This document shows, piece by piece, positions 1,252 through 49,573 of a stretch of 64,000 nt of DNA (positions are counted from its first letter, which is position 1; each line of letters begins with the position of its first letter). Source of the stretch: Cyanidioschyzon merolae. Its lineage: Eukaryota. The notes beneath the pieces are model-generated. The model searched no databases, was not told the DNA's origin, and was given only the letters and a program-made list of their open reading frames with translations. The DNA is taken from assembly GCA_000091205.1 (NCBI GenBank), contig AP006491.2; one strand, written 5' to 3'. A program made the position numbers and the translations under genes.

Positions 1252-1396
1252 GTAAGTAAATCGACTTTATGCGTTGGCGGCATGCTCACAAGATCATGCG
1301 CAAACTTCACCGAAATTCTCGCTTCGAAAAAATGGACTCCGTTCAAACGACACATCCGGCTCTCTTTGGAGCCATCTAGGCATCGGCTTTGCACAG
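1252..1396 (+). repeat. Short member (146 nt) of a GTAAG...CAG-bounded intron-like element family (introner-like candidate)
   Basis: Starts GTAAGTAAA and ends TTTGCACAG. Shares ATGCGTTGG, CATGCT, a gaaa(a)ttcgaaa-like motif and an ATCGGCTTTGCACAG-like 3' end with the elements at 24271-24584 and 52281-52585. The 5' GTAAGTAAA terminates ORF 927..1259, and removing the element joins that frame to the frame of ORF 1282..1548. Confidence 0.45.
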
Positions 1397-1456
1397 AAGC
1401 AGTTTCCCGTCGACGGGGCATGCTCCCAGAGGCTCCCGGCTCTTGTCATCGGAAAC

Positions 1457-1480
1457 CGGACTCGGACTCGGACTCGGACT
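1457..1480. repeat. (CGGACT)4 hexanucleotide microsatellite
   Basis: Four perfect tandem CGGACT units are read directly in the sequence. Confidence 0.9.
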
Positions 1481-6480: not shown

Positions 6481-6743
6481 GGCACTGCATGCTGTATTTT
6501 TTTGTGGACAAAACGTTTACTTAGGCCAGCGTTCTCCGATTATGCGCTTTTTTCTTTTCTTCCTTTTTTGTGTGTTTTTCAGTGCGCGGTGAGGTATCCA
6601 TCAACCCCCTACTCCCATGTTCCATTACCTATACTTCGTCTCGGATATTCTGGTCGTTTCATACGTCCTATCGTGTGCCGAGCCTACCGAAAGCGACAGC
6701 AATAGCGCCTATAGCGCCGGTGCGGTCACTGCATGCTGTATGT
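6481..6743 (-). mobile_element. 5'-truncated copy of the 3' end of a non-LTR retrotransposon (LINE 3' UTR plus poly(A)), with a 16-bp target-site duplication
   Basis: Bases 6497-6727 are about 85-90% identical to 33228-33470, the 3' UTR of the LINE at 33.2-37.5 kb. On the minus strand it ends in A7 (TTTTTTT at 6497-6503 on plus). It is flanked by near-identical direct repeats GGCACTGCATGCTGTA (6481-6496) and GGTCACTGCATGCTGTA (6727-6743). It lies about 170 bp upstream of the POLA1 ATG. Confidence 0.6.
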
Positions 6744-12817: not shown

Positions 12818-13170
12818 ACATGAAAGGAAACCACACTCGCGCTGGGACGAACACCGGACTTGAATTTTTTTGAACGGCAGCGATTGGCAGCGACTCGGCA
12901 GGCGCCGAACTCGTAGTCGTTGCGGTATCTCCGAAAAGGAAGCAGACAGCGCCCAGATTCTGAACGGAAAACGAGTGACGCCGCTTAGTTTTTCCAGAGC
13001 TCATAATTCACGGGAGTCAGGTTCCATGGACAAGAGGAGTCATCCCCACAAATTGAATGACGGCATCAGGACCCGTTTTTGCGTGCCGAGCACCGTGCCG
13101 TGCAGAGGCGAATGCTCCGCACGCGGTTTTCAGAGCGTCCATGTGCGTGCGGACGACACTCAGCAAGCGA

Positions 13171-13450
13171 GCATGAGCATAATCATAAATATAAATAAGC
13201 TTGAGCACGAGCACGAGCACGAGCATAATTCTAAATATAGACATAAGCACGAGCATGAGCATGAGCATAATCATAAATATAAATAGAAACATAAGCACGA
13301 GCACGAGCATAATTCTAAATATAGACATAAGCATGAGCGTGAGCATGAGCATAATCATAAATATAAATAGAAACATAAGCACGAGCACGAGCACGAGCAA
13401 AAGCATGAGCATAATCATAAATATAAATAAGCTTGAGCACGAGCTTGAGC
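13171..13450. repeat. AT-rich minisatellite of about 3.3 units with an ~84-bp period, built from (AGCAYG)n runs alternating with AATCATAAATATAAATA or AATTCTAAATATAGACATA modules
   Basis: Read directly: the period between 13246, 13330 and 13414 is 84 bp. The block is bounded by AATAAGCTTGAGCACGAGC at both ends. Confidence 0.8.
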
Positions 13451-15222
13451 TTGCACTGAGGCCGCCAACGATTTCGGTTGAACGGCGGCAAGCAGCGTGC
13501 ACTCTCCTACTCTTTCACTGACTTGGCAACGTAACTGACCGATACTGCGCGTCGCGTGGTATGGTGGTGGTCGTGTATTGCGCGGCATGTTCTGTAGCAC
13601 GCAATGGTTGCCCGCCTGCTCGCTCGATGGAGGCGCGCAACAAGTGGAGGCACCGATTCTGCTCGATTCTCGTCGATGCGCTCGGGACGGCATGTGTGCA
13701 CGACGAGCACGAGTACACGCTGGAAAATATAGAGAGGAAGAGTGTGGAACGTTGATGGGCGCACGAGGTCTTGTGCGGGAAGTTTATCGAACGTCAGATG
13801 CCGAGCCAATCGCAGGCGTGATGCTCGCTATGATGCATCTCCATGAGCAAGGAGGCACGCGAGCACCCTCTGCACCACCGAGACGTCAACGCCTCGAAAC
13901 AAGTCTGGAAATGTCTCGCGCTTGGGGACCATCCAACGACTGTGTGCTCGATGGAGCCTCCTGAGGGAGTCACTCTGCGCGCAGTGCGAGATTTGTGGTG
14001 AAACGCTGAGGAGCTCTGATGAACAAGTCCGTGACCTGGAGAAAGGAGTTTTTTGATTCTCGCCTGGAGCAGAGCGGTAGTATTGAACTGTGCAGGAATG
14101 CAGAGAGCTCGGTATACCGCATATTCAAGACCGGAACGGTTCTCCTGGGCAATTGTCGAAAGATAATGGTGGTCTGTTTGTCGATATCACCGAGTATAGC
14201 CTTATACCATTCGTGGACGCTGACTAGATCCATTCCTCACTTACCATAAACAATACCTGCCCAAGTCCAGCAGTATTCCATGCCACCTGCGGCGCGTTGA
14301 ACCACAAGATACGCGGCATTTGGCGTCGTGTCAACAATCGTGCGCCCACAGAGAGCTGATTTCGACCTCTCCAATGTTTCGGAGCGGTGCCGATGCCGGA
14401 GCAGATGACAGCGCTCTCGGCTGCGGTGCTTGTCCACAAGGCATCACCCTGGCACTCTTCCTGGTACGCGTGATCCGAATAGAAGGCTACAAAGGATCAA
14501 ATGCGCTGGCGATGTTCTGCATTGCTTCCTGTCCACCTGCGTTCGATGCAGCGAAAAGTGCAGAAGCGCATCGCGCTGTCACTACGTTCGGTGCATTCGC
14601 CTGTATCCGGACACATGGGCACAAGATTTCGTCTGATGGTGGATATTTCGCAAATATCGATACATGCGTTCATGAGTGGTTTGCGAGCTCACCGCGCACG
14701 CATTCGCTAGCGGACTTTGCGGTGTTCACACGCAAGAAGCGCCCTGAGTGTCAAACATGCACGTACTGAACGCGATCTCAGGGTGCTCTCTAAGCGTACA
14801 CAAATGATCATCTTTGCGATCTTGTGACGGAATTGGGATGTTGACGCGGACGCCTGCCCTCTGGAGGCATCAAAACAGCGGTGCTCGTTTCATACAGGTA
14901 ATGATTGCAACAGAATAGCCCATACACCGTCGTAATTCCCACCTGCGGCTTTCACCGCGTAATAGGTTACAGATTCGAACAGCGAGATCGCCACTGCCTG
15001 GTATCGGTGCGGATTGAATGTTTTCAACAAGAGCGCACTCGCTGTTCGAGCTCCCGCGGAAAATCCTCGATCTGGATTCCGCGAAGTTGACCAAGCGCTT
15101 TGAGCGAATCGGCTGGAGACAAGCTCAAGTGCTCATTGATGAGCCCGTCTGCCTCTCTGTGGCACAAGATAACTGCACCGACAGCGTATCGTTCCGCGTA
15201 GGAGACTCTTTCCACGAAATAG

Positions 15223-30545: not shown

Positions 30546-30639
30546 TGGGATGAAGAAGAGCATTGCTTCGCCATGCAGTGTCCCTACTGAGCGGACTAGA
30601 AGCGGCAGTTTTCAAAGCGTCGTTGGTGGTCACAGCGAA

Positions 30640-33225
30640 ACGCTGTTCGAAAGTCGCACGTCGCCGACCGTGCACGGTAGTAGCGGGAAACGCGCGTTCG
30701 ACATAGCGTTTCCAGCTGACGTGTAGACGCCTCCCCGTCTTTCTCGACCGGCCACCGACTACTGGTTTCAACTTTTTCTCATATAGTTCCACTTTGAGAG
30801 GTTGCCCCACAAGTCCGCTCTTGTCGTCTCTGGAGGTCTTCTCTCCAGCACCGCACATCTCCTTACATTGATAGCGGCATTAAAGTCAAGATTCACGAAC
30901 TCCATACGTTTCTTGCCATCGTTCGTTGTACTTACTAGTGCAAGTAGCCCTCGCACTTTCGCCCTCCTTTCCATTTGCTCTTCGGTCAGCGGTCCGTACT
31001 TTTTTATATCCTCAGGGCTCCGCTGACACTTTTCCATCTCGACCCTTTGAAGTGTACATCCCAGTTCATGGTGTGTATAGGATGTTCGGAACTCATCTAC
31101 AGTTACTGTGACGAAACGCCATGCACACTCTTTGTACGTTCTTGTCGTTGGAGCTGGTGTAGTTCCTTTTTGGGTCATCAAGCGCCCTGCTCCGTACGCT
31201 ATTACAAGCCTCTGACTTTAATCCTCCTTCAAGGCGCTCAACTCATTGAAACAATTCACGAATGAACGCTGCTTCTGACAATACAAGTTCATACGCAGAC
31301 GAGCCCACCGGGGCTTTGTATACTCTTTCCACAGGGCATCCCAATGCGCCATGCGAACTTCCATGAATTTCCAAAAAGCATCAAGGTCCGCTCCTCGGCT
31401 CGTCACCTCGCTCAAAGCTTCCAGGTGCTCCTTCATTCCTGCATTCCATGTCTCAGTTTTTTTCCTTGCATTCATGATTTCCGATTCTCGATCGTATCTC
31501 GCTCTCGAGAAGCTCAAAATTCGCATGTCTTTCTGACGTAAGTTACCATCAGTATCATCTTCCACACGCCTGGGCAAAGCGATGGTTATGATATTTGTGT
31601 TTCCAGGGTCCGCGTCAACGACAAGGTCGTTATGCTCCACCTCCTGCGTCGCAAGTTCCGCTTCCTTCTTATCTTCATGCTTCGCCGCGGCAGCCATACA
31701 GTCGTTATCCTCCACTTTCTGTGTGGCAGGATCCGCCGTCTTCATATCTTCATGGTTCGCCGAGGACGGAACTGGACGATCTCTCTTCAACCGCCGATAG
31801 TGTATACACAAGGCTACTCCATCGGTTTCGATCAACCCAGTAAGTACCTTTTGTTTGCTGGCTTTGAGACGTTTGAAATCGAAGAGACTCTTCCAGTACG
31901 TCTCCCGGTTTTCACCGGAGAATTCCTCCCTGCTAACACTGAACTCCGGACTGATCCCCTTCATGATGCCGTAAAGGATTCTGGAGTCGACAGTCACAAA
32001 ATGTGACTTGATGTTGCACATTGGAACCAGGTTGAAGCGCTTCCCCATTAGGACAGCCTTCCGTCTCTCCCACTCTTCATTGTTTTCCCCACTCAGCTTC
32101 ATCTCCGCTTTGCGTTCGAGTTCACGGTCCAAAAACACGAAGTACCTCAAGATGAGGAGGCAGTATCTTTCCTTATCTTTTTTCAACTCTGATACCTTTT
32201 CTGATGGATTCACCAGCCCCAAGACTGCACGGTGCTCTTGTATAACCGCACGGATCACAGAAGCTTCATTCGTGCTCTCGTTTGACGCCTTCTTCTCGAC
32301 AAATTCGACCTCATCTTCACGCTTGCGATCTTTCATGATGCCATTGATAATCGCCCATTTTCCATTGCGGGATAGGCCCGGGTAGAGTGCAACCACGGCG
32401 CGTATTAAGAAACGTTCGAGGTTCGTTGTCAAATGGTTCTTCAGGTTCGTGATGCACTTCATCGCCCCATAGTCGTAAATATCGCGGTCACCCCTGCATC
32501 GAGTACCGTTGAAGCTGTAGAAGGGATGTTTTTCGTGGAGGGCACGCACCAGCTAATGTTCCGTCCGCGCTCTCTCTGTGCCAAGCATCAGGTGACGAAT
32601 AAACGTCTTGTCGAGAAACTCGTCCGCAACCTCGACTATTTCCATGTGCGTCACGTCTTCGTACATCTCCCTCGCGCAATGCATCAGTTCTGACGACGCC
32701 TTGACAATACTCTTGGAGTACGAATCGAGACGTTTTTTGATAGCGTCTCGCAACTCTTCCCTGTAGGGATCCTTGATATGTCCAAGAAGGAAGGATTTCA
32801 CCGCCTTCTCGTTGTACAGCCGTCTTTCTTGCCGCCTTCGACGTAGGGCCTCCCCCCTTCGGTTCCTCTTCTCTTTCTTTTCTTCTGGACTCGGCACTGT
32901 TTTTTGTTTTTTTTCTGGCAGCCGGCGACCTTGGGCCCCCAGGATCGTGCACTTTCTTTTCCATAACTTTCCTTTTTAGTATTTTTGAGAAAGAACGCTC
33001 TTTGAACCCTTCTGTTATATGCTGCGAAAAAACACTTGACTAGACTTGTTTGAGAGCTGACACAAAAATGAACTGAAAACTATACGTTGCCAAGATCTCA
33101 ACGGGAATCCGACTTTTACAGCTGAACAACACGCTACTGATCTCAATCGAGTTTCCCTTCAACGGCGACATACGCGTCGTGTCTCATGCCTGCCAGATCC
33201 CCCAGGTGCACTCACCGGGCGCGAC
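30640..33225 (-). mobile_element. TnpB/Fanzor-like element, copy A (decayed), forming the left arm of a large inverted repeat
   Basis: This is the reverse complement of 37493-40100, with about 95% identity across the ORF and about 80% in the 3' flank. The inner boundary at about 33222-33225 matches B's inner boundary at about 37493-37495, and the outer homology fades at about 30640. Confidence 0.7.
30768..32964 (-). pseudogene. TnpB/Fanzor-like RuvC nuclease gene, copy A, disrupted by a frameshift, TAA and TAG stops and a 6-nt deletion
   Basis: Compared with copy B it has an extra A in an A7/A8 run near 32905 (an N-terminal frameshift), the shared in-frame TAG at 32550-32552, GGG to TAA at about 31215 (the ALKED* site), and an in-frame 6-nt deletion (RWASKKGT to RLMTQKGT). 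The RuvC-like motifs are retained: [16 protein letters not shown] and LDFNAAINV. Confidence 0.7.
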
Positions 33226-33227
33226 TC

Positions 33228-36200
33228 TTTTTTTCATAGACAAGACGTTTACTTGTGCCCGCATTCTCCGATTGTGCGCTTTTTCTTTTCTTACTTTTTT
33301 TTTCAGTGTGCGGTGACGTATCCATCAACCCCCTACCTCCATGTTACATTACTTGTACTTCGTTTTGGATATTCTGGTCGTTTCATACGTCCTATCGTGT
33401 GCCGAGCCTGCCGAAAGCGACAGCAACGGCGCCTAAAGCGCCGGTGCGGTCGCTGCACGGAGACAGAACGGCTTTTCCATACCACAGAGGGCGTCGGCTC
33501 GAGGCATGGTTCACCCGACGTAGAATCGGGTCTCGTCGTCAGTTTGAGCTCGGATAGTCTGCGGATGCAAGCTTGTCTTCGCTGCACGATACGCTGGAGA
33601 AACTTGGCTGTTAGGATACATCCTAGGAGCCGCCTCTCTCCTTCCTGGTCATGCATGGAATGCGTTGTTGTCGGTTGGCAATGCGAGTTTGTGCTTGACA
33701 CCCACCACTGTGGGTAGGCGCAGAAAGCGCACTGGGCCCGTGTGCGCATCCGATACGCTGGACCTCATGCCTAGAACGTAGCATGTGAGTTTGTTCGCCA
33801 CTAATGAGCGCTGAGGCTCGGTTAGCGGACCATCAGTTACCAGTGCTACACTCCGAGTGAGTGTCCGGCCTTCGACAATCACGGTGATGTCCAGCTGCTG
33901 CTGTCCCCCAAGGAGCTCGCTGCGCTCCTGCTTCCAGCGCGGGCAATGTAGGCCTAAATGTGTCAGCGTCTCGGGTATCTCGTCTCGACAGCAGGGACAG
34001 TGTGATTCCCAGTGCGATTCCAGTGTTCCTATACGGCTTAGAGCCGGTGCTGCCAGCCGGAAGCCACCAACGCGGATTTTGGCGAGCCACTGGGTACCTC
34101 GAGCAAGTCCCGGGAATTCCAGCCTCCTACCAGTACTTGCATGTGTATGCTAGGTTGTAGTTCCGGTATAGAGTCAAGCCGGCGTTACTGGCGCGACTGG
34201 TTCCGTGTATACGTTCCCATATGGTTGTTTGGACCGTTCGCTTGAGGCGGCGGGAGCCTTGTGCATTTCTGGGGAACGATTCGAGCGCATTTTCGCCTAA
34301 GAGGCGCTTCAGCCAAATATGCGTTGATTTCATCCAAGTGTTCTTGCGGTGCGTTGGGGTTTGCATGAAACTCCGACTGAACCAGGTGCGCATGGTGGGC
34401 CCTTTGGCCCATATGCGTGCCCGGCAGCCTGCTGCTATCGCTTCTGTCGAGGGTATTTGGAGTTCAAGTCCGAGTGCCAGCGCGGTGGTTGCTCTGCTCT
34501 GCACTGAGCATCAAACAACGACAACGAGTCGCATTGCCCTGTTGGCGGCTGTCTGCGGACGCGAGGCATTTGTGTGCTTCATGCCGCACCACCCAGCACC
34601 CCAGGTCGCAGGCTGGATGATACACATCCTTCGTGCGCTGGTACGAATTGCTATGCAGATAGAGGGGTCGGATGGGACTGGGCGTGCGATCGCTGTACGT
34701 CTATGCATCTTGGCGATCATCTCGTCAACGTGTGCGTTTTCGTCGAGCGTCGGCGTTAGACAGACCCCCAGGTAGCGATAGTTTTCCCCGATCGGAATTT
34801 CCTGATTCTGCAACCGCCACGAGCGATTGCGAATGCGCTGCGAGTCTCCATGGATGGCCATGACGCCGCACTTCGATGCTCCTACGTTCATCTCCCAGCG
34901 ATCGGCCCAGGCGCTGGCTTGTTGCATGCTACCCGCAAGCGTTTCCGGGGCGGGTGCCAACAGCACTATATCGTCCGCAACTAGACGGCCTGCGAGGCGG
35001 TTCCTATGTGAGGGCTCCTCATCGGGCATCTCCCCAGTCTATCCACGGCACCTCAAGCCCGTATTGTCTGCAGTTTTTCAGCGGATCGTTGATGAAGATG
35101 TTGAAAAGGAGCGGGGATGCGCGCTCGCCCTTTTGTAGTCCACGGCGTATTCTTATACAAGGGGTTCTTGAGCCGTCGCCCAGTCGGATGCGCATCCACG
35201 AGTCTGCATAGAGCGCACGGAAGAACGCTAAGCACTTTCCGGAGACTCCGGCTCGTTCCATCTTCAAAAATAGAGCCTCGTGCGGGACCGTGTCAAAGGC
35301 CTCTTGGAAGTCGATGAAGCATACGTAAGTTGGTTGTTGGCCGCTAATGGAGCGACGTTGCGCCACTTCAATGAGGGTCAGGGCATGGTTCATGCACTCA
35401 TCGCGGCTCCGGAATCCAGCCTGTTCTGGGGCGAAGAACTTGCGTTCCTCGAGGCCTCTCTGGATCCGGTTCGTGAGGTTGGCGCAAAAGTAGCTTCATG
35501 ATTGACGGGATGAGGCCGATAGGCCGGTAGATGTTCATGTCTTTGTGTGTAAGAGTCCTTTTTGAGGATCGGTACGACCTCGGCAGTCCTCCGTACATCT
35601 GGGATGCACGCTTCTTCAAACATGCGTTGAATGAGCTCCAGAAGGCGTTTGCATAAGATTGTGTCAGGTTCATCTGGTATCGATGGTGTCCCTGTTGTCT
35701 CGTATTTTGGGGTCACCAGTTTCATCCACTCCGCAGGGATACCGTCGATGCCAGGTGTTTTGCGGTTGCTTGAGCATAGTAGGGCCCGAACAGATTCAGG
35801 CCAGAAGATTGGCTCGTTCCATTCCGGTACCGGGTCGAGGCGCGGTAGTTCTGCAGCATATTGGTGCCAATAGATTCGGTCTTGGCAGTTCCCAGTTGCG
35901 TCTTCATGCAGCTCTATCCCGTGGTCCGTCCAGGCCTCATTCACTGAGGCACGCTCCGTCCTCAGCGCTTCCTTATAAACGATTGATGTGAGCCGCAAGC
36001 ACTTTTTTGGTGGGTCCAGTCTCGATCGAATGTAGCGCTAGGTCTCATCTTCGTTGGTGCCCTCGAGCATAAATTCCGTCAGGGAGTCGATTTTGCGGTT
36101 TCGATCCTCTCGTTTGTCTTCTCTGGAACGTTTCTTCTTTCTTTTGATAGCGTCCTCATGTTGCGCCTGTAGCGCCGGTAGCGCTGCCTTCGCTTCCTTG

Positions 36201-37470
36201 TCTCCGGCGTTGGCGCGTATGGCGGTGCGGTTGACGATCTTATAGAGTCGGTGGCATTCATCATTCCGAGTTTTGGTACGTCATTCCAGGTACCGCGGTT
36301 TGCAACTGTTGTGTTCTGGTGCAAGCAGTCCCAGTTCTCTGGCAATCTTCTGATTCCCATCTACATACTCGCGTGCCAATTGGTCAAAAGATTTGTATGC
36401 ACGGCTTTTCGGATCTTCAGCGCTGTGAGCAGGTGCCTGGGTTTGGCGACGTTTTTCTTGGGTTCCCGCTGGGGTGCCCTTTCGGGGGATCACTTGCGAT
36501 GGGCTCGTTTGGGGGGGTCTTCTTTCTATTCTTCTGTTTTTTCTTGTCGGTCTTCCTCGTCTTCTTCGGGCTCTTTCCTGAGCTGCTTTCTCTGGATATT
36601 TTGCATCTAAGTGGATCATGAGGTTTCTGTGCCTCCTTCTCCGTATCTGGTTGGGTCTCTTTACCTAATGCAGAGTCCTCCACTTGTATCAGTTCTTCGT
36701 TACAGTACTGGTAATTCGAAATCTCGTCGTCTAGTATCGAGGCCGTCCCACAAATATTCCATGATACGAAACCTATCGAGTCATAGCGCATACGGGAATA
36801 GGAATAGCGCTACGGTACTCCAGAGATACGTTGTCGATTTAGATACACGCTTCACGAGGTGTGTGAACGTACATGCCACCATTGCCCTCTGCATTCCAGT
36901 CGTTCATTGAGTGTCTGCCGCAGCGCTAGCGCGGAATCAGAAGTACATTAGTAAAGGTCGATTCGAATGCGACCTTTATCTTGCCGGACGCGTGTACCTC
37001 TCCTCAACCACAGGGGATACTCTACGAACCAACCTTTCAGCGGCTTCGTATCCGCTCCCCAAATACATAGGCGGGCAAGTCGCTTACTCCACCTTCGACA
37101 GTGAACATACTGGCAGCCGTCTTCAAAAGTATCCGCCGAGATTGTTTCCAAAGTTGAGGTAGGTACGCAAGGTAGGAGGTACAACTGAGCCCGAGTTCGA
37201 GGATAGATCCAGTATTTGCGCCGAAACCTGCAGCGTTGATTCGGGAGGGGCGAATGACTGCTCAGAACTCTCGTCAATATTTTCTGGTGCTACTGCCTCC
37301 GCCCCTCCGTTCGTTGCGGTCAAGGTCCCTGGCGTGGGCTTCCTTCCCCGTCGCTTAAACACCCCGCGTTAACCCATTTTCAGAGCTTCTCTGGAAAATC
37401 TAGACCTCTTAGGCGAGGGTGGTGTGTGGGGCTTTTAAGATAGTGGTTCTTTGATAAATAGTTTGCGACT
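33228..37470 (-). mobile_element. Non-LTR retrotransposon (LINE) of about 4.2 kb with a decayed single APE+RT ORF and poly(A)
   Basis: Read on the minus strand from 5' to 3'. It begins with an APE-like N-terminus (FVSWNICG at about 36760). RT motif 0 follows (KTPGIDGIPAEWMK), then motif 1 (VVPILKK) and motif 2 (YRPIGLIPSIMKLL). Next come motif A (FIDFQEAFDTVPH), motif B (RGLQKGERASPLLFNIF) and motif C (FADDIVLLA). These lie in at least three different frames, so the ORF is frameshifted. A C-terminal CCHC (HCPCCRDEIPETLTHLGLHCPRWKQER at about 33900) and a ~420-bp 3' UTR end in A7 at 33228-33234. The flanking hexamers GCGACT(C/A) at 33221-33227 and 37464-37470 are a possible short TSD. Confidence 0.7.
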
Positions 37471-37492
37471 AGTTTGCATCACGCTCGGTGAG

Positions 37493-40100
37493 TGCACCTG
37501 GGGGATCTGGCAGACATGAGACACGACGCGTATGTCGCCGTTGAAGGGAAACTCGATTGGGATCAGTAGCGTGTTGTTCAGCTGTAAAAGTCGGATTCCC
37601 GTTGAGATCTTGGCAACGTATAGTTTTCAGTTCATTTTTGTGTCAGCTCTCAAACAAGTCTAGTCAAGTGTTTTTTCGCAGCATATAACAGAAGGGTTCA
37701 AAGAGCGTTCTTTCTCAAAAATACTAAAAAGGAAAGTTATGGAAAAGAAAGTGCACGATCCCGGAGGCCCAGTGTCGCCGGCTGCCAGAAAAAAACAAAA
37801 AACAGTGCCGAGTCCAGAAGAAAAGGAAGAGAAGAGGAACCGAAGGGGGGAGGTCCTACGTCGAAGGCGGCAAGAAAGACGGCTGTACAACGAGAAGGCG
37901 GTGAAATCCTTCCTTCTTGGACATATCAAGGATCCCTACAGGGAAGAGTTGCGAGACGCTATCAAAAAACGTCTCGATTCGTACTCCAAGAGTATTGTCA
38001 AGGCGTCGTCAGAACTGATGCATTGCGTGAGGGAGATGTACGAAGACGTGACGCACATGGAAATAGTCGAGGTTGCGGACGAGGTTTTCGACAAGACGTT
38101 TATTCGTCACCTGATGCTTGGCACAGAGAGAGCGCGGACGGAACATTAGCTGGTGCGTGCCCTCCACGAAAAACATCCCTTCTACAGCTTCAACGGTACT
38201 CGATGCAGGGGTGACCGCGATATTTACGACTATGGGGCGATGAAGTGCATCACGAACCTGAAGAACCATTTGACAACGAACCTCGAACGTTTCTTAATAC
38301 GCGCCGTGGTTGCACTCTACCCGGGCCTATCCCGCAATGGAAAATGGGCGATTATCAATGGCATCATGAAAGATCGCAAGCGTGAAGATGAGGTCGAATT
38401 TGTCGAGAAGAAGGCGTCAAACGAGAGCACGAATGAAGCTTCTGTGATCCGTGCGGTTATACAAGAGCACCGTGCAGTCTTGGGGCTGGTGAATCCAGCA
38501 GAAAAGGTATCAGAGTTGAAGAAAGATAAGGAAAGATACTGCCTCCTCATCTTGAGGTACTTCGTGTTTTTGGACCGTGAACTCGAACGCAAAGCGGAGA
38601 TGAAGCTGAGTGAAGAAAACAATGAAGAGTGGGAGAGACGGAAGGCTTTCCTAATGGGGAGGCGCTTCAACCTGGTTCCAATGTGCAACATCAAGTCACA
38701 TTTTGTGACTGTCGACTCCAGAATCCTTTACGGCATCATGAAGGGGATCAGTCCGGAGTTCAATGTTAGCAGGGAGGAATTCTCCGGTGAAAACCGGGAG
38801 ACGTCTTGGAAGAGTCTCTTCGATTTCAAACGTCTCAAAGCCAGCAAACAAAAGGTACTTACTGGGTTGATCGAAACCGATGGAGTAGCCTTGTGTATAC
38901 ACTATCGGCGGTTGAAGAGAGATCGTCCAGTCCTGCCCTCGGCTGCGCCCGCGACGAAGGATGAAGATAAGAAGGAAGCGGCTCCTGTAACGCAGGAGGT
39001 GGAGGATAGTGACTTTCTCGTTGACGCGGCGAAGGATGAAGATAAGAAGGAAGCGGCTCCTGCGACGCAGGAGGTGGAGCATAACGACCTTGTCGTTGAC
39101 GCGGACCCTGGAAACACAAATATCATAACCATCGCTTTGCCCAGGCGTGTGGAAGATGATACTGATGGTAACTTACGTCAGAAAGACATGCGAATTTTGA
39201 GCTTCTCGAGAGCGAGATACGATCGAGAATCGGAAATCATGAATGCAAGGAAGAAAACTGAGACATGGAATGCAGGAATGAAGGAGCACCTGGAAGCTTT
39301 GAGCGAGGTGACGAGCCGAGGAGCGGACTTTGAAGCTTTTTGGAAATTCATGGAAGTTCGCATGGCGCATTGGGATGCCCTGTGGAAAGAGTATACAAAG
39401 CCCCGGTGGGCTCGTCTGCGTATGAACTTGTATTGTGGGAAGCAGCGGGCGTTCGCGAATTTGTTCAATGAGTTGAGCGCCTTGAAGGAGGATGGGAGTC
39501 AGAGGCTGGTAGTGGCTTATGGAGCAGGGCGCTGGGCGTCGAAGAAAGGCACTACGCCAGCTCCAACTACGAGGGTGCACAAGGAGTGCGCAAGGCGTTT
39601 TGTTACAATACCTGTAGATGAGTTCCGAACATCGAATACAAACCACGAGCTGGGATGCACACCCCAGAGAGTGGAGATGGAAAAGTGCCAGAGGAGCCCT
39701 GAGGAATTTGCAAATTACGGACCGCTGACGGAGGAGCAAATGGAAAGGAGAGCGAAAGTGCGAGGGCTACTTGCACTATTAAGTACAACGAACGATGGCA
39801 AGAAACGTATGGAGTTCGTGAATCTTGACTTTAATGCCGCTATCAATGTAAGGAGATGTGCGGTGCTGGAAAGTAGACCTCCAGAGTGGACACGAGAGAA
39901 CTTTTTTGGATAACCTCCCAAAGTCGAACTATATGAGAAAAAGTTGGAAGCAGAAGTAGGTGGCCGGTCGAAAAAGGCGCGGAGGCGCCTGCGCGTCGAC
40001 TGGAAACGTTTCGTGTAAGGCGCGGTTTTCCCGCCACTACTGTAAACTGCCGACGTCGTTCGACTTAGAGCGGCGTTGGCGGCTGTCCGTTCAGGGTGGC
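37493..40100 (+). mobile_element. TnpB/Fanzor-like element, copy B (the more intact one), forming the right arm of the inverted repeat
   Basis: A 246-bp 5' region, an ORF at 37739-39913, and about 190 bp of 3' flank that is still homologous to copy A. Homology ends about 35 bp upstream of the SMC1 ATG at 40135. Confidence 0.7.
37739..39913 (+). CDS. TnpB/Fanzor-like (IS605 OrfB-like) RuvC-fold nuclease candidate, 725 codons, interrupted by one in-frame TAG at 38147-38149
   Basis: A RuvC-I-like motif ([17 protein letters not shown]....DG), a segment resembling the TnpB strand that precedes the zinc ribbon ([20 protein letters not shown]), a degenerate zinc-ribbon region (H..GC...C), and a RuvC-III-like DxNAAxNI motif ([12 protein letters not shown]). 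A basic NLS-like N-terminus ([31 protein letters not shown]). An internal 75-bp tandem duplication ([15 protein letters not shown]...) sits just before RuvC-I. The ATG is at 37739. The assignment is by motif pattern only. Confidence 0.5.
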
Positions 40101-40134: not shown

Positions 40135-43100
40135 ATGGGTCGCATACAGCGCCTAGAGGTAGAAAACTTCAAGTCTTACGGTGGCAAGGTGTGCATCGGA
40201 CCTTTCGTGGAGGGGTTTACGGCTGTCATCGGACCTAACGGCGTTGGTAAGTCGAACTTATTAGATGCCTTGGGGTTTGCGCTAGGCTTGCCCGCCCGCT
40301 TTCTTCGGGCGCAGCGCTTAGCAGAACTTATCTATCGCAAATCTGACCATGATGTTGTTCATGGGCAGGAAGTTGCTGGTGAACATAACGTGGACGGTGC
40401 AAACCAGTCCCACCGTGAAACGGCGGTGGCAGGGCACGCAGACGGCTGCGCTAGCGTTCGTCTCTTTCTGGAGGTTGCGCCCGACCAGGTGCTCATTTTT
40501 GAGCGTTCCATCGAAACGAAAGGTGTTGCGAGCTACCAGGTGAACGGTCAACCGCTGAGCTCCGAGGAATATGCGGATAAGCTGGCAGAACACTCGATCT
40601 TAGTGAAAGCTCGCAACTTCCTCGTGTTCCAAAACGAAGTGGAAGATATAGCGACAAAGTCGGGAAAAGCGTTATCTGCGCTCTTCGAAGAGATATCGGG
40701 ATCGGCCGAGTTACGCAATGAGTACGATTCGGCCTTGGCGGAGGTTCGCAAGGCCGAGCAACGGCTCCATTTGTGCGCCCAGAAAAAGAGGGGCCTCCTG
40801 GCCGAAAAGAAACAGTGTCGCGCGCATTGCGATGAAGCTGAGCGTTACAACCAGCTGCAGCAACAGATCGCGAAGATCAGGAAGCTTCGCGTGCTGTTCC
40901 AGCTGTTTCATTTGAAGAAGGATGATTCCGAAGCTGAAGAAAGCACGCAGGGACTCGAACGCGAGTTGGAAGCTCTGCGAGCACGAAGAGTTACCATCGC
41001 CAGCGACCTGGAAGACCAGAAACGGGCTCTCGCCAGCATGCGCCGCGAACAAGCCGCCCTCGAAAAGCGGCGGCAAGCACTCGAGTTATCCCTCGAGAAG
41101 AATCTGATACAGCAAGCAGCTAAACGAAGCGAAGCTCGCGCTGCGGAGAAGCGGCTCTCGATGGAGCAGAAGGCCCTCGACAACCTTCGCACCAATCGGA
41201 CGCGATCCAGGGAGGAGATTCATGCGCTGGAAAAGGCGCTTGCCGAAGTTGGAGAAGCGCTGCGTGCTTTGAACGAAGAAGAGGAGCAGGCGTTGGCAGA
41301 ATTGCAAGCCGCTCACGGAGTGGATTCCTCTGCAGTTCGCAGGTTACGTGATGAGGCGGTCGCGAGCACTGCGAGCATGCGTGAGATGCTTACCACGGCC
41401 GAGAGAGCAACGGCTGCGCTACGCGCCATGCACAAGACGGAGGCGCAGAAGCTCGCGGCCTTAGAACGACGCTTTCGCGAGCTGGAAATCGATCGTGATC
41501 GTCTTTCCATGCAGATCGAGAAGATTCGGGCAAAAATCCAAGACGCGGAGAGAAATTTGGAAGAGGCCCGCATCGCAGACCAGAAGGCGCGACGGCGGTC
41601 CAGCGAACAGGCACAGAAACGCGAGGCGCTCGAGAGGGCGGCCCAGCAGTATCGCGAGCGTCTGCTAGAACTTCGCTGTGCACGAATGGAGTCCGAAAGA
41701 GAGCGAAGATTCCACGAAACCTTAGATCAAATCATGCGTCTGTTCCCTGGCGCTCGAGGTCGCATCGTGGATATCTGCCGGCCCGTCCAGCGACGCTACG
41801 AAGAAGCCGTATCTGTCATTCTGGGCAAGCTTGGAGATGCGATTGTCGTCGATGACGAACGTACAGCAAGCGAATGCATCGCTTACTTGAAACAGCAACG
41901 TGCGGGCACGGCTACGTTCTTGCCCCTTGCTGAGATTCGTCCCGCGCCCATTGATGAGAGCTTGCGTGGTATTGGTGGCACTGTGCGGCTCGCAATCGAT
42001 GTACTCGAGTTTGACAAGTCATTCTTCCCGGCCATTCAGTATGTTGTCGGAAACGCCTTAGTTTGCGACAGTTTGGATGAAGCACGCCATGTTGCGTACG
42101 GCGGCAGTCAGGTTTCACGCATCTGCACAATCGATGGCACGCTGATCCACCGTTCTGGGTTCATTACCGGCGGCGCGGAATCCGATCAGGGTGCGTCGCG
42201 CACGCTCTGGGAGAATGAACAGGCCGTCTCTCTCAAGCGGGAATTGGATGAAGTTTTGCTGGAGTTAGCGAAACTTGGTCCAGTAGATTCGGCACAAGAG
42301 CGCAATGAAGCTGAGCAAGCCCATGAAGTGCTCCTCAGTACTCAAAGACATCTCGAGTATTTACGACACGAGCTGCAACAAAATGAGGAACGTGCTGTCA
42401 AAGTCAGCTCCCAGCTGAATGCGCTTCACGAACAAGTCTCCAAAGCCAAGGTCAGCGAGGAACAATGCCGGCATCAACTCGAACAAGGCGTCGCAAATGT
42501 ATCCCAGATCAAAGAAAGAATCGAACGCGCAGAGCGAGAAATACTCGGAGATATTTCCCCGCAGAGTATTCACCGAAACGAAGAGTTCCGCGAGCGTCGC
42601 CTGGCGCTGACCTCCCAGCAAGCCAAACTGCGCGCTCGTTTAGAATACGAATACGCCAGAGAAGCAGAAACCAGCGAGCAGGACCTCGTCGAGCGCGTCC
42701 AAAAGGCCACCGCAGCCAGAGCTGAGCTGGACACCCAGATTGAACGCCTAGAGCGTGAGCAGGAAACACTCGAGCACAGTATCCGGGAGGCACTGCAACA
42801 ACAAGAGCATATTCAGCAACAACTGGCAAAAATAGAGGAAGCTCTGGAAAAGATGCGCGAAGAAGAGAAGCAGCTGGCAGAAGACATCAGTTCCAAGGAA
42901 AACGCCCTGAACACGCACCGCGCAAACAAGGAGGATATCGCCGAGCGTCTGCGCGCCCTGGAGACTGCGTGTCGCATCGACCAGATCGATGTGCGTGCGC
43001 CCGCGACAGCAGCAGAGGCGGGTCGGGGTCAGGGCCGCGGCGCTGGGCATTCGAGCGATCGCGCACGCGCTCGGACGCGCACCCGTGGTCCATCTGGTGC

Positions 43101-43938
43101 GCAGTCCGAAGACCCTGTCCTATTTGCAGAGGATCTGGATATGTCGCTCTTGAGCGAAGAGCATAGACATGCGAGAAGCCACTCTGAGCGCATGGCCATA
43201 GAGTCGTCGTTGAATGAACAGGAACAAAGTCTCGTGGCAGAGTTGGAGCGCATGGCCCCAAATCTGCGAATCACGCAACAGCTCGATGATATCCAGCAGA
43301 GGCTCGACCTTGTTGCCACCGAGCAGGAGGTCGCTCGTGGCGCGCTTGCGGAGGCAAATCGTCGATGGTTGAACGCGCGCGATGAGCGTACGCGGCGCTT
43401 TCGGGAGTGCTTCGATCATGTCGCCGTCTCCATCGATGGCGTATTCAAAGAGCTTACACGATCAGAGGTACATCCCGTGGGCGGAAGTGCCTCGATCAGC
43501 CTCGAGTCCGCGTCGGAGCCGTACCTAGGTGGCATTCGCTTCAGCGTCATGCTCCCCGCAAAGCGCTTCCGCGAGGTGGATCAGCTCAGCGGGGGCGAAC
43601 GCAGCCTGGCGGCACTGGCACTTGTCTTTGCACTGCGTGACTTTCAGAAGTGTCCGTTTTTGATTATGGACGAGATTGACGCTGCACTGGACCCCGCAAA
43701 CTTAAGCCGCGTGGCGACTTACATTCGAGGGCGTTCCGTACAGTCCCATCCATTTCAAACGATCGTCATTTCGCTTAAGGACCAGTTCTTTGAGTTCGCC
43801 AATGCCCTGGTTGGTGTTTATCGCAACCCTCTCGAAGGTCACTGCAGTCGCATGCTCACCCTAGATTTGGATGCCACTGTCGCAGCGACGAACACTGCGG
43901 ACGCCAAAGAGACGCCTGCAGACTCGTCGCCCAGTTAG
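40135..43938 (+). CDS. SMC1: Structural maintenance of chromosomes protein 1 (cohesin SMC1)
   Basis: An N-terminal Walker A head (MGRIQRLEVENFKSYGGKVCIGPF..FTAVIGPNGVGKSNLLDALGFALG), long coiled coils, a hinge, the ABC signature QLSGGERSLAALALVFAL, Walker B FLIMDEIDAALD and an SMC1-type C-terminus (VISLKDQFFEFANALVGVYR). An ATG at 40135; the track start at 40096 is not ATG. No introns. Confidence 0.9.
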   Translation: MGRIQRLEVENFKSYGGKVCIGPFVEGFTAVIGPNGVGKSNLLDALGFALGLPARFLRAQRLAELIYRKSDHDVVHGQEVAGEHNVDGANQSHRETAVAGHADGCASVRLFLEVAPDQVLIFERSIETKGVASYQVNGQPLSSEEYADKLAEHSILVKARNFLVFQNEVEDIATKSGKALSALFEEISGSAELRNEYDSALAEVRKAEQRLHLCAQKKRGLLAEKKQCRAHCDEAERYNQLQQQIAKIRKLRVLFQLFHLKKDDSEAEESTQGLERELEALRARRVTIASDLEDQKRALASMRREQAALEKRRQALELSLEKNLIQQAAKRSEARAAEKRLSMEQKALDNLRTNRTRSREEIHALEKALAEVGEALRALNEEEEQALAELQAAHGVDSSAVRRLRDEAVASTASMREMLTTAERATAALRAMHKTEAQKLAALERRFRELEIDRDRLSMQIEKIRAKIQDAERNLEEARIADQKARRRSSEQAQKREALERAAQQYRERLLELRCARMESERERRFHETLDQIMRLFPGARGRIVDICRPVQRRYEEAVSVILGKLGDAIVVDDERTASECIAYLKQQRAGTATFLPLAEIRPAPIDESLRGIGGTVRLAIDVLEFDKSFFPAIQYVVGNALVCDSLDEARHVAYGGSQVSRICTIDGTLIHRSGFITGGAESDQGASRTLWENEQAVSLKRELDEVLLELAKLGPVDSAQERNEAEQAHEVLLSTQRHLEYLRHELQQNEERAVKVSSQLNALHEQVSKAKVSEEQCRHQLEQGVANVSQIKERIERAEREILGDISPQSIHRNEEFRERRLALTSQQAKLRARLEYEYAREAETSEQDLVERVQKATAARAELDTQIERLEREQETLEHSIREALQQQEHIQQQLAKIEEALEKMREEEKQLAEDISSKENALNTHRANKEDIAERLRALETACRIDQIDVRAPATAAEAGRGQGRGAGHSSDRARARTRTRGPSGAQSEDPVLFAEDLDMSLLSEEHRHARSHSERMAIESSLNEQEQSLVAELERMAPNLRITQQLDDIQQRLDLVATEQEVARGALAEANRRWLNARDERTRRFRECFDHVAVSIDGVFKELTRSEVHPVGGSASISLESASEPYLGGIRFSVMLPAKRFREVDQLSGGERSLAALALVFALRDFQKCPFLIMDEIDAALDPANLSRVATYIRGRSVQSHPFQTIVISLKDQFFEFANALVGVYRNPLEGHCSRMLTLDLDATVAATNTADAKETPADSSPS

Positions 43939-46099: not shown

Positions 46100-48205
46100 A
46101 TCCCTGGAATCTCTCTATAAGGGCATCTGCTGAGCGCGCCGCCGCACTTGGAAAGCCTACACCAGAGCCTGATCCGCAGCCGGGGAACCGCATCGCATAC
46201 GACCCGCGCACAAGTGACGCTGCACGCCGCGTGAGTGGCGCGGTTTTCGGAAGGGAAGAAGGGGCAGGTGCGAGGCGTGCCTCATGGACGTCGTTACAAG
46301 TCCAGCGCGTCGTGCATCGCAGCGAAGCGGTGCGTCTGCGAGTGGGCGCTCTGCATGCCAGCCTCTGGGACACTCGGTCTCAGCAGAAACGAACAACCCG
46401 CCTGCGTAGGAGCTTTTCATCGCTGTATCGGTTGCATCTGAGCCTGAAAACAAAAACCCCATTTTAAATGTTGCGGCGTTGGTTTTGGTGACGTCTGCGT
46501 AGCGAGTCCCAACTCGGATCTCGATACCTAGAAACTCGCTCTGAGCTTGCAGATAGCACACACATGCCGAAAACGCGCTCCAGACACGATTGATCACCTG
46601 CTGTGCCATTTCATGTCATCCACAGGTCATCCACCGACGGCTTGGAAAAGTTGCAGTGGCGCGGTAGAGGGTCAAAGTATGGCGTGGACGCAGACGATGT
46701 TGCGCGGCAATGACAAGCGCTGCCCGGGCATTTTTTCGCACGTGTCTGCATTGAGTGGAGCGAGTCGCCGTAGAAAACTCGGACGTGCGCGTGAAAGCTT
46801 TTCTTTTGCTTCCCATGGCCATCAACACCAGTCTCTGCGGGCTTTTCATGCGACTGCCTCTTTATCCGCTCTCTTATCTCCGGATTTGCGTACGGCTATC
46901 GCTGCTCTCCGACAAGCTCCGATATCAACAGTCGAATATTGTTGATGGCAGCGTTATTGTACAGATATCATCGCTTCCGGCTATTGTCGACGCCTATGAT
47001 GCAGATGAGGCAGTTGCGAATTACGTTTCAATAGCCATTTTCATGTTCTTTGGCTGCAGCACCGATGCGTCCGTAGCAGCGGTGGCGCTCGGCTGAACTC
47101 AGGGATTTTCACGTGTCCACTATATATCCTGGTCCGGGGCCTGCACTGTGGCGCGTAAACGCTTGTTGCATTGCTCGGAATGTGCACATAACGGATACGA
47201 AAGGTGCCTCTCGATGCACGCCTCCGTTTCCGAGCCCGGTGCCGTACCCAACGATCTCGGGCCTCTTTTAGGCGATCTCCTCGGCGTGTGCTCTGTCCGC
47301 TCCGAGTACAAACGCACGTTGCTCCGTTCGATAGCGGATTCGAAGAACGCGGTTTGGTTCTTGATGAAATAAGTAGCAGAAGGGGCACCAAGAATGCGGA
47401 ACAACTCGAGAAATATCGATCTCCCTACGCTGCGTTCGTGGAAAGCGTCGACGAACCCTCTATTGGATGCGATCGCTCCGATGATTCAGGTTTGAGTCTA
47501 AGACACTGTTCCATGCAAACAGAACGGACGGGAGCCTCTGGGAGCTCATCTCGCGAGAGGTATAAAGTTAGAATTTTAGTGAACTTTCTGCTTGAGCTTC
47601 TGAACAAGTCGTCATACGATGACATCGAATGTTTCCCCCAAAAAAGAATAAGTCCGACCACTGACAAGCAATTCGATAAAAGTAGCTTTCCAGCTCTATG
47701 TTAAGCATTGAAAGGGAGAAAAGGTTGCCGCATCTTCGAAACTTTAACTTCTAGACGCAAGGTCCCGCGAGCCGGTCGAGTGTGCCGGGCTTGCGCTCCA
47801 TGTGCCTCTGCAGTGGCGGATGCTGCTGTGAGCCTTGAACAACTCGTCCGCAATGCAGTGTACTCTCGGACTCGGAGCGGCCAGGCCGTGTCTGGGCGTT
47901 GCCCTGGTCGCGGTGGACTCTTTGCATATCGCTCCGCGCTGCCGCATGCAGCGCGTCTGTCCGCGCGGCTCGCAGGCTCCCAGAATGAGTACGTTCTCCG
48001 ATTCTGCCACTGGTGAATCACACCTCGAGGTACCACTCTCTAAGGTATGGCAAAGCCGTTCTCTCCCTATGATGCATACGCACCAGCGATATAAGCACTA
48101 GTGCAGGTGCAGCAAGGCAGGTACTCAGCACTCGATAGAACCTAAGAAACGACCAGTCTCTCCGAGAGAAACAAAGGGTAATGGAACCTGAGCGCAGGAT
48201 GCAGC

Positions 48206-49573
48206 ATGATAGACAATTTCCCAACCCCCGATGTACATCCTGCAAGCCAGGGTTCACGGTCAATCTTAACGATTTGTCGAGCAAAAAAAATCGTGTATCC
48301 GGGAAGCAGCGATCCCCAGTTGCGCGCTGATGCTAGGCATCTGGTACAGGCTCCCGCACGGTCATCGTTGCCCCAGGGCGCGATCGTTGCCACTGCGCCG
48401 CGCCCTTGCATTTTGTCGCACTCACTGGAAGCCGCTGGCGCTGTTTCGCCGCAGCGTTTGCGTGGCGCCTGCGCCTTCGCTCGCCACGAGCGCGTGCGCA
48501 CGCATGCGCCTGCGACCTCAGAGGCGCGCGCACGTCCGGCCCTAAAGGGTAACAGTGCTCGCAGATACGCTGCGAACGGTGGGCACGTGAGGATGACTGC
48601 TTTATCCGCGGCCTTTGTAGGGTCTTTGGGACCTGGTACACGAATTCAATTGCGCTGTACGCGTCAGCAGTCAAGAGTCCCTCTGGGGAGCGGTGGAGCG
48701 AGTGCTCGGAGCAGTTTGCGCGCGGGACGTCCACGGCGCCTCGCGTGCTGCGCGCCGGAGGCCAGCGGTCTCTCTGAGCCTATCTTTCAGACGAGGACCT
48801 CAGCTGATGCTGAGCACGCCAGTTTTCCAAACGGTCGCAGTGTTCCGAGGAAAGAGTCTGGAGCCGCGTTGCCGGAAGACACCGGCGAGCACGCTGGGAG
48901 CCTACCAGCTTCGTTGCCTGTCGACGTGCCGTCACTTGGGACCGCCCCAGAGAGAACCAGTTACTCTGTTTGTCCCGAGCTGTTGTCGTCGACCGCAAGC
49001 ACTTTCCGACCGTTTACTCCGACCGAGGCGTTTGGTGGCCTTGGCGTCTCGTGGGACGAGCTGGAGCCCCCGCAGCTCGGGGAACGGCTCTCGATTTTCC
49101 AGCGGGTAGCCGCTGACGTCGGGCCGGAAGCGTGGGCGCGAATTGCCTCTGCTGAGAAAATGGACGGTGACGAGGATGAACAGCTCGCCACGGCGGAGGG
49201 CTTCGACCGACTGCGGAAGCACCAGTTGCTGTTTGATTTCGAAATAAACCCCTGCCGCAAAGAAGAGGCTCGCGAGATGCTCATCCATCGAATGCGCAAA
49301 ACGCGGCAGCGCATACTGTATTTGCAGAAGGAGATTGACAAGCTTCCGGAGCGACTGGAGAAACTCATTGCCGAACTGGATGTATGCACAGAGCGCGGCG
49401 ATCGACGGCGGCGTCAGGACGTGCTAGCGCTCGGGAACCGCCTCTGGGCGCGACATCATGAACTGATCGACATCATCGCACGGGAGGAAGTGCGCATGGA
49501 AGAGTACTTGTATGTCTGGGGGCGTCTGCGTTGTAGCGATGACTCGGCGGATGTAACTCAAATTGGGGTGTGA
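48206..49573 (+). CDS. Hypothetical protein with a C-terminal coiled-coil region
   Basis: An ATG-initiated ORF. The N-terminal half is low-complexity and may be non-coding. The C-terminal ~150 aa look protein-like (EINPCRKEEAREMLIHRMRKTRQRILYLQKEIDKLPERLEKLIAELD...). I see no recognisable family. Confidence 0.25.
   Translation: MIDNFPTPDVHPASQGSRSILTICRAKKIVYPGSSDPQLRADARHLVQAPARSSLPQGAIVATAPRPCILSHSLEAAGAVSPQRLRGACAFARHERVRTHAPATSEARARPALKGNSARRYAANGGHVRMTALSAAFVGSLGPGTRIQLRCTRQQSRVPLGSGGASARSSLRAGRPRRLACCAPEASGLSEPIFQTRTSADAEHASFPNGRSVPRKESGAALPEDTGEHAGSLPASLPVDVPSLGTAPERTSYSVCPELLSSTASTFRPFTPTEAFGGLGVSWDELEPPQLGERLSIFQRVAADVGPEAWARIASAEKMDGDEDEQLATAEGFDRLRKHQLLFDFEINPCRKEEAREMLIHRMRKTRQRILYLQKEIDKLPERLEKLIAELDVCTERGDRRRRQDVLALGNRLWARHHELIDIIAREEVRMEEYLYVWGRLRCSDDSADVTQIGV

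Follow-up and report, generated by a model that had tools for sequence, protein, structure and literature searches.

The window analyzed here, a stretch of 64,000 nucleotides from Cyanidioschyzon merolae (contig AP006491.2 of assembly GCA_000091205.1), contains two copies of a transposon-borne gene lying head-to-head on opposite strands. The open reading frame (ORF) of the plus-strand copy (copy B), which begins with the ATG at 37739, had been described as Fanzor-like in the original prediction. Together with its partner, copy A, which is more decayed, it forms an inverted repeat (37479 to about 40070 against 33224 to about 30650) of 93.5% identity overall, a match that cannot be put down to chance. 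The homology of copy B to 56 other copies begins at about 37475-37482 and stops at about 40078-40089. Next to copy B, the ORF 40135-43935 (1267 aa) encodes the cohesin subunit SMC1 and is 100% identical over its full length to the annotated SMC1 of C. merolae 10D, which assigns the window to that strain. The ORF of copy B is very probably a dead copy of CMe-1A, a Fanzor1-encoding transposon family of this organism.

CMe-1A was described as a Fanzor1 family of C. merolae by Bao and Jurka (2013, Mob DNA 4:12; PMC3627910), with about 150 copies that are some 80% identical to a 3169-bp consensus, no terminal inverted repeats and undetermined target site duplications; a separate element, TE-N2_CMe, corresponds to the first 635 bp of the consensus (PMC3627910). 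The Additional files of that paper provided the consensus DNA together with the CMe-1 protein of 734 aa. By blastn, copy B matches the consensus at 84.9% identity over positions 670-2196 and at 87.0% over 2117-3140 (consensus 670-3140 corresponding to 37503-40050), and copy A matches at 84.2% and 87.3%, within consensus 670-3145. Consensus positions 1-669 are unaligned in both copies, and other repeats abut the small 5' hairpin, which lies at consensus position 647, the boundary with TE-N2_CMe. Since both copies are without the TE-N2_CMe module of about 645 bp, they are 5'-incomplete members of the family. They share with CMe-1A the host genome, the protein start (MEKEVEDPGGP), the C-terminal tail and the stop; they differ from it in the missing 5' module, in being disabled and, in copy B, in carrying two 25-aa repeats instead of one. 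Judged from the alignment, the reconstructed ancestral ORF is the published CMe-1 consensus protein, and the family is already known. The features of the locus are collected in Table 1.

Table 1. Parts of copy B and limits of the two CMe-1A copies, in window coordinates
Feature	Coordinates	Strand	Basis or remark
Copy B, Fanzor module of CMe-1A element	37479..40085	+	blastn to consensus, homology limits, covariance model
Copy A, second CMe-1A Fanzor module, head-to-head with B	30633..33224	-	more decayed than B
Small 5' hairpin (CGCTCGGTGAGTG)	37482..37494	+	start of homology among all copies
N-terminal 136 codons, from ATG 37739	37739..38146	+	basic NLS-like stretch, then first strand and helices
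Nonsense TAG (ancestral GAG, Glu)	38147..38149	+	copy counts and consensus
Nuclease body REC/WED/RuvC, 586 codons	38150..39910	+	ORF list, profile, homologue alignment
Two in-frame 75-nt tandem repeats, 25 aa each, acidic	38950..39099	+	just before RuvC-I
Premature stop TAA (ancestral CAA, Gln)	39911..39913	+	copy counts and consensus
C-terminal 34 codons (39914-40015) and consensus stop TAA (40016-40018)	39914..40018	+	
Conserved 3' untranslated stretch: GC-rich short stem candidate and near-invariant CCACTACTGTA(A/C)AC (CCACTACTGTACAC)	40019..40046	+	
Terminal hairpin, 15-bp stem, loop GACTTA	40047..40082	+	similarity among copies ends at hairpin base

The identification of the ORF as a Fanzor was borne out by profile and by fold, both of which give Fanzor1. 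A homologue search returned 83 proteins, nearly all from hot-spring metagenomes and with a weak precomputed assignment to PF26935/DUF8286, and a second, word-indexed search added almost no diversity. By an exhaustive profile search, at least 3,563 clusters at 50% identity were reached (E <= 0.001); these are unnamed or labeled "hypothetical protein," the named ones coming from the green alga Haematococcus (Haematococcus lacustris KAJ95xxxxx; P0084-P0231). In Haematococcus, some of these proteins also carry a hAT dimerisation domain as a fusion (P0082). A profile of 78 homologues matched the solved Fanzor1 proteins PpFz1 from Parasitella (7.3e-24), SpuFz1 from Spizellomyces (1.4e-17) and GtFz1 from Guillardia (4.5e-13). 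A profile of 9 sequences gave no match in the PDB even at E <= 10, no Pfam or NCBIfam family was found for the window body at E <= 0.1, and Pfam searches with ten homologues returned no TnpB or Fanzor model. At the structural level, the AlphaFold model of the homologue P0004 (752 aa, 71% identical to copy B) reached a predicted local distance difference test score (pLDDT) of 83.8 and a predicted template modeling score (pTM) of 0.81. When it was compared with the PDB by Foldseek, ranks 1 to 7 were all Fanzor1 (E 1.6e-16 to 5.6e-14; target-normalised TM 0.51-0.72, with 0.72 to SpuFz), and Cas12 and TnpB matches were far weaker (E 5e-3 or worse).

The catalytic signatures point in the same direction. 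Yoon et al. (2023; PMC10711439) list two: a DPG motif in RuvC-I, and a glutamate placed six residues ahead of the first Cys position of the zinc finger. Copy B has the former in DADPGNTN (D and G 100%, P 93% conserved in 75 distant homologues) and also the alternative RuvC-II Glu, which is 100% conserved, with His at E+7, where Cys1 sits in PpFz/SpuFz; the RuvC-III Asp is kept in LDFNAAINV, which resembles RDxNAAxNI. These catalytic D, E and D residues (39104-39106, 39620-39622 and 39827-39829) are 100%, 100% and 99% conserved in the clade. The solved Fanzor1 proteins (SpuFz1, 8GKH and 9CEU-9CEZ; PpFz1, 9CF0-3; GtFz1, 9CER-T) are alike in overall fold, in the DPG of RuvC-I, in the Glu just before TNB, in an RDxNAAxNI-type RuvC-III and in being eukaryotic and transposon-borne. 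They differ in showing only 11-15% identity and in carrying the CCCC zinc finger that the CMe clade is without, and the disordered insert of 25-aa tandem repeats before RuvC-I is a feature of CMe. TnpB of the IS200/IS605 and IS607 elements shares the RuvC fold, with a weak Foldseek match to ISDra2 TnpB (8H1J, E=0.03, 271 columns); however, there is no Pfam OrfB_IS605 or OrfB_Zn_ribbon match, the CMe protein is much larger, its host is eukaryotic, and TnpA is not present.

The zinc ribbon had been described as degenerate, keeping only H..GC...C. The residue pattern stands, since from EFRTS to RuvC-III copy B reads H-x2-GC-x10-C without any CxxC, whereas its interpretation as decay of this copy does not: a CxxC anywhere between EFRTS and RDxNAA occurs in 2 of 71 clade members and in no CMe copy. 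Among 78 clade members, H, Y or D stands in the Cys1 column and D or T in the Cys2 column, 52 members retain Cys3, and the Cys4 region has been deleted; the CMe family itself has His, Leu, Leu and a deletion at the four positions. In the P0004 model, a helical insert replaces the NUC/TNB CCCC zinc finger, which, according to PMC10432273, is common to SpuFz1 and TnpB. A C4 zinc finger between RuvC-II and RuvC-III is part of the motif given by Bao and Jurka for Fanzor1 (PMC3627910). Because Yoon et al. (PMC10711439) ascribe the finger to "many," not all, Fanzors, and because Bao and Jurka list CMe-1 as Fanzor1, we consider the missing finger a clade variant and not a ground for exclusion from Fanzor1. 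By these comparisons, the loss of the finger is old and clade-wide and is no lesion of copy B, and Pfam DUF8286 (PF26935) may be taken as a Fanzor1 clade of thousands of members that lacks the zinc finger.

Copy B is disabled by two point nonsense mutations, GAG to TAG and CAA to TAA, together with replacements of near-invariant residues. The first of these stops had been noted as an in-frame TAG shared by both copies, placed after a basic segment resembling a nuclear localization signal (NLS) and followed by no early ATG. In copy B this description is accurate, the segment comprising 136 codons from the ATG and the first Met coming about 30 codons downstream of the TAG; in copy A the TAG lies at 32553-32555, the coordinates noted before (32550-32552) being those of the adjacent CTG codon. 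For comparison, 80 related metagenome loci were collected and thinned to 37 copies with pairwise identities below 97%. At the TAG site these have GAG in 25 cases, GTG in 7 and TAG in none, and the CMe-1 consensus protein, reading ...GETSRRNERVHALHE... across the site, has Glu there.

Another reading is that the TAG, perhaps with the TAA, is functional, acting through programmed readthrough or separating a basic peptide of 136 aa from a nuclease body whose translation begins downstream. We regard this as very improbable. It would account for the TAG being kept not only by copies A and B but also by the orthologous loci L082 and L085 of other strains, and copy B does retain the catalytic D/E/D. 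However, P0001-P0003, which share the TAG, adjoin SMC1 or CcmE and are about 98% identical to the window in nucleotide sequence; on this evidence they are orthologues of B and A in closely related strains, not further transposed copies, and strains that share the TAG differ by about 0.3% at neighboring genes, so that the sharing carries little information. Moreover, in the P0004 model the residues matching 37739-38146 have a pLDDT above 90 and the TAG-equivalent residue falls within a continuous high-confidence part, so a body-only product would miss the first strand and helices. The absence of TAG from the 37 distinct copies, the invariant residues changed in B, and the frameshifts and additional stop in A are likewise at odds with a functional TAG. 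The standard code applies in this genome, as translation of SMC1 gives the annotated protein exactly, and reassignment of TAG and TAA as sense codons was ruled out, as long host ORFs translate normally. To our knowledge, the context UAG-CUG-GUG fits no known readthrough motif.

The remaining lesions are those of a pseudogene. Relative to the 75 distant homologues, copy B has six substitutions (F->L, Y->D, F->L, L->P, R->L and I->V) at sites where conservation is at least 85%, and P0004 retains all six of the residues concerned. The R->L change at 39824-39826 adjoins the catalytic Asp and affects an Arg that is 100% conserved among these homologues; Leu stands in its place in both window copies and their orthologues. 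Copy A has an additional nucleotide in an A-run near 32914, the TAG, a TAA at 31218-31220 and a -1 frameshift near 30812. As far as the alignments tell, the six replacements in copy B are ordinary pseudogene decay, and neither window copy would be expected to make a working protein. The 25-aa repeats vary in number within the family (1 in the published consensus, up to about 5 elsewhere) and are predicted to be disordered in the model (pLDDT 29-41). The counterpart of the 75-nt repeat in copy A is at 31610-31762, and the repeat was also noted in loci L001, L002, L007 and L034.

How both copies came to carry the same TAG is explained by the distribution of differences between them. Their identity is about 99% in the 5' 2 kb and drops to 80-90% at the 3' end, the proportion of synonymous sites that differ (pS) being 0.015-0.023 over 37739-39430 and 0.315 over 39431-39910. 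The nearest relative of each copy in 39431-39760 is a different other locus and not the partner, the 3' thirds of A and B are as diverged as unrelated family members, and a 1-nt deletion at the 3' end of A is common to loci L043, L044 and L011. These comparisons show A and B as separate, old copies that lie head-to-head, and the simplest reading is that the inverted arms have repeatedly undergone gene conversion, through which both came to carry the TAG, located inside the converted tract. Alternatively, A and B could derive from one inverted duplication of a disabled element, with the identity gradient reflecting uneven divergence. Such a duplication fits the fact that both copies begin at the same element nucleotide and share the TAG; it is nonetheless quite unlikely, as pS leaps from about 0.02 to 0.315 within one ORF, the deletion and the closest 3' relatives of the copies lead to other loci, orthologues in other strains are patchworks of A and B that differ from one another, and the same 5' junction types are found at unrelated loci. 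Among the three readings of the TAG put forward earlier (two products, readthrough, or an element already disabled before duplication), the disabled element is the one that held; its disablement before a simple duplication did not, given that none of the 37 other copies has the TAG, and gene conversion takes its place.

Comparison with other strains also points to gene conversion. Of the 186 sites that differ between the window copies, 41 lie in 39479-39679, and at 38-40 of these the B orthologues from other strains agree with A; of the 47 sites beyond 39879, they agree with B at 46. One of these orthologues is A-like in the repeat region as well. SMC1 differs at 13 of 3801 nucleotides between L082 and the window, as against 82 of 1761 in the Fanzor body. 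Loci L082/L083, L085 and L084 carry differing A-like and B-like patches in the Fanzor body, with flanking genes about 99.7% identical. From these mosaics, gene conversion between the inverted transposon copies looks to be ongoing. Two points weigh against our interpretation of the locus: none of the 37 sampled copies is intact from the ATG to the consensus stop, and the strain comparison uses metagenome contigs that are possibly chimeric across 99%-identical repeats, as L084 appears to be. P0001 was assembled identically in two samples.

Past the second nonsense codon, the original prediction had seen a coding-like extension and proposed that the ancestral ORF ran closer to the 3' end of the element. 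This proved well founded. Downstream of the copy-B stop, 34 codons are aligned in frame with copy A before a second TAA is reached, and the two TAA codons of B stand opposite CAA and GAA in A. At the first TAA site, CAA is found in 30 of the 37 distinct copies and TAA in 1, and at the second 25 of the 37 have a stop, TAG or TAA. Furthermore, the published 734-aa CMe-1 protein includes the tail: it ends in ...ENFVGQPLKVELYEKKLEAVVGGRSKKTGRRLHVSWRRFV (...QPLKVELYEKKLEAVVGGRSKKTGRRLHVSWRRFV; last residues SWRRFV) and has Gln at the TAA. Taken together, the copies show a reconstructed ancestral ORF that is continuous from ATG 37739 to the stop at 40016-40018, with 759 codons in copy B; the 734 aa of the consensus are explained by one 25-aa repeat fewer. 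In the model of P0007, which reads through, the first 10 or so residues of the tail have a pLDDT of about 71 and the basic remainder one below 45.

An improbable alternative is that these 34 codons were never translated and were conserved as part of a guide RNA or as a cis-acting transposon end. Indeed, guide RNAs overlap the 3' end of the ORF in TnpB and in some Fanzors, according to PMC10432273, the element ends about 65 nt past the ancestral stop, and its tail is structured. The substitution pattern is nevertheless that of a coding sequence. Third codon positions vary most (0.236/0.174/0.273), and the family-wide ratio of nonsynonymous to synonymous substitution rates (dN/dS) is 0.47 in frame versus 0.71 and 1.13 in the two other frames; by segment, it is 0.24 for the RuvC half, 0.51 for the first half of the body and 0.71 for the N terminus. 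Since the dS of the extension (0.45) is as high as in the rest of the ORF and thus not depressed, it gives no sign of added RNA-level constraint. The open codon in most copies, the stop that they share 35 codons on, and the published consensus protein likewise speak for translation, as do homologues at 37-39% identity, which hold a shorter C-terminal tail, G[QR]PLVHxVGxTxxR. The A-B pair alone (7 synonymous and 11 nonsynonymous differences in the extension, pN/pS 0.51) offers too few differences to decide. The further suggestion that a guide RNA overlaps the ORF finds no support here, as synonymous divergence in the extension is not depressed and a conserved structured module lies past the ancestral stop.

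This 3' module consists of the conserved stretch and the terminal hairpin of Table 1. In copy B, the hairpin folds with -27.3 kcal/mol (RNAfold; z = -4.1), and z is below -2 in 19 of 44 copies. A covariance model built from 12 copies found 47 instances in 53 sources and, within the window, only the ends of the two copies (40032-40085 on the plus strand for B and 30633-30685 on the minus strand for A). On the covariance-model alignment, 84.5% of hairpin cells are paired (a figure somewhat inflated, since the alignment was fitted to the model), compared with 30-56% when the partners are slid. Compensatory changes affect 10 of the 17 hairpin pairs, and the covariation score was reached by none of 500 shuffles. 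A 7-bp stem candidate spanning the consensus stop is 87% paired and shows no covariation. RNAalifold on a MAFFT alignment of the 3' ends gave no structure, the hairpin subtypes being aligned by sequence and not by structure, and Rfam at gathering thresholds has no family in the window. The published CMe-1A consensus ends inside the 3' arm of the hairpin, and the conserved end extends a few nucleotides further. Matches to the covariance model away from a recognised Fanzor body (L026 2565-2619, L056 2139-2216 and L073 1897-1974) may be solo ends or short non-autonomous derivatives.

At the opposite end of the element, the sequence of the small 5' hairpin is replaced in other subfamilies by GCGCGGTCGATACGCGC, a different sequence of the same shape. 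Upstream of it, full-length members have about 630-700 nt in at least three mutually divergent versions, the first in L008, L014, L026, L029, L037, L043-L046, L048 and L062, the second in L011, L023, L049, L055 and L058, and the third in L019, L047 and L081; in L047/L081, the consensus 5' terminus is inverted and directly adjoins the Fanzor module.

In our analysis, the 3' module (short stem, CCACUACUGUACAC motif and terminal hairpin) is the best candidate for a guide-RNA scaffold, a transposition signal or both. The guide RNA of Chlamydomonas Fanzor1c maps to a conserved 3' untranslated region (UTR) (PMC10530073), and two stem-loops can suffice as a Fanzor1 scaffold (PMC11423790). Equally, the terminal hairpin could serve as a DNA-level transposon end, like those of Helitron2 or IS200/IS605; the subterminal hairpins of the CMe element resemble IS200/IS605 ends. 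The Helitron2 trait of hairpins at both ends is found here, as the small hairpin at 37482-37494 and the covarying long 3' hairpin, although full-length copies have their true 5' terminus about 645 bp further upstream, in sequence that the window copies lack. Fanzor1c of Chlamydomonas reinhardtii (CRe-1/2/3, CrFNuc), carried in a non-autonomous Helitron2 (PMC3627910; PMC10530073), is an algal Fanzor1 like CMe and has in common with it terminal hairpins and a strongly conserved 3' UTR, the source of a small guide RNA in Fanzor1c; Haematococcus, whose proteins are the closest named ones to that of the window, is also a chlamydomonad alga. Unlike Fanzor1c, the CMe genes are without introns, and neither asymmetric terminal inverted repeats nor a T-rich target nor a RepHel partner, for which no search was made, came to light.

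The spacer between the copies (33225-37478, about 4.25 kb) holds other repeats, including a degenerate reverse transcriptase whose ORF fragments lie on the minus strand at 34511-35998 (the L082 orthologue matches RVT_1, E=8e-15), and a TE-N2_CMe fragment at 33332-33530. By its matches, it is a composite of several repeats; a single non-LTR (long terminal repeat) retroelement over 33226-37478, with its poly(A) abutting copy A, was considered and ruled out by the TE-N2_CMe fragment. The A-rich junction of the spacer with the 5' hairpin is also present at the unrelated loci L034, L004 and L075/78, and the opposite junction recurs at L005, L010 and L031-33. This recurrence suggests site-specific insertion or co-amplification. 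An association of Fanzor1c with LINEs (long interspersed nuclear elements) was described by Jiang et al. Elsewhere in the window, a solo TE-N2_CMe lies at 47640-48278 on the minus strand (76% identical to CMe-1A consensus 5-639), and a fragment of it of about 100 bp is found at 6608-6711. A weak tblastn match at 12939-13148 was discarded as a further Fanzor; it stems from a coding-like, His/Glu-rich low-complexity repeat (HEHEHE...) at 13000-13500.

If the assignment to Fanzor1 holds for function as well, intact members of the family would act as RNA-guided DNA endonucleases. Catalysis would involve the DPG Asp, the repositioned Glu of DEFRTS and the Asp of RDxNAAxNI, nuclear entry may occur through the N-terminal basic signal, and the guide RNA would be drawn from the 3' untranslated end of the element.

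The locus itself is of little weight, as it is a pseudogene of a transposon family already reported from this genome in 2013. Its analysis had modest by-products, among them the reading of DUF8286 given above. The inverted pair would cleanly exemplify how gene conversion can carry a nonsense mutation from one transposon copy to another, and the covarying terminal hairpin, clipped in the published consensus, is a candidate guide-RNA scaffold or end signal. More tentatively, and with doubts that we consider to prevail for now, CMe-1/DUF8286 may be a large, still-active Fanzor1 branch of at least 3,563 clusters, whose main sources are metagenomes and chlamydomonad algae; it would combine invariant D-E-D residues and the lack of a CCCC finger with a compact guide-RNA scaffold held entirely in the 65 or so nucleotides past the stop, its terminal hairpin doubling as the transposon end; the copies in the window would then be dead relics of that branch.

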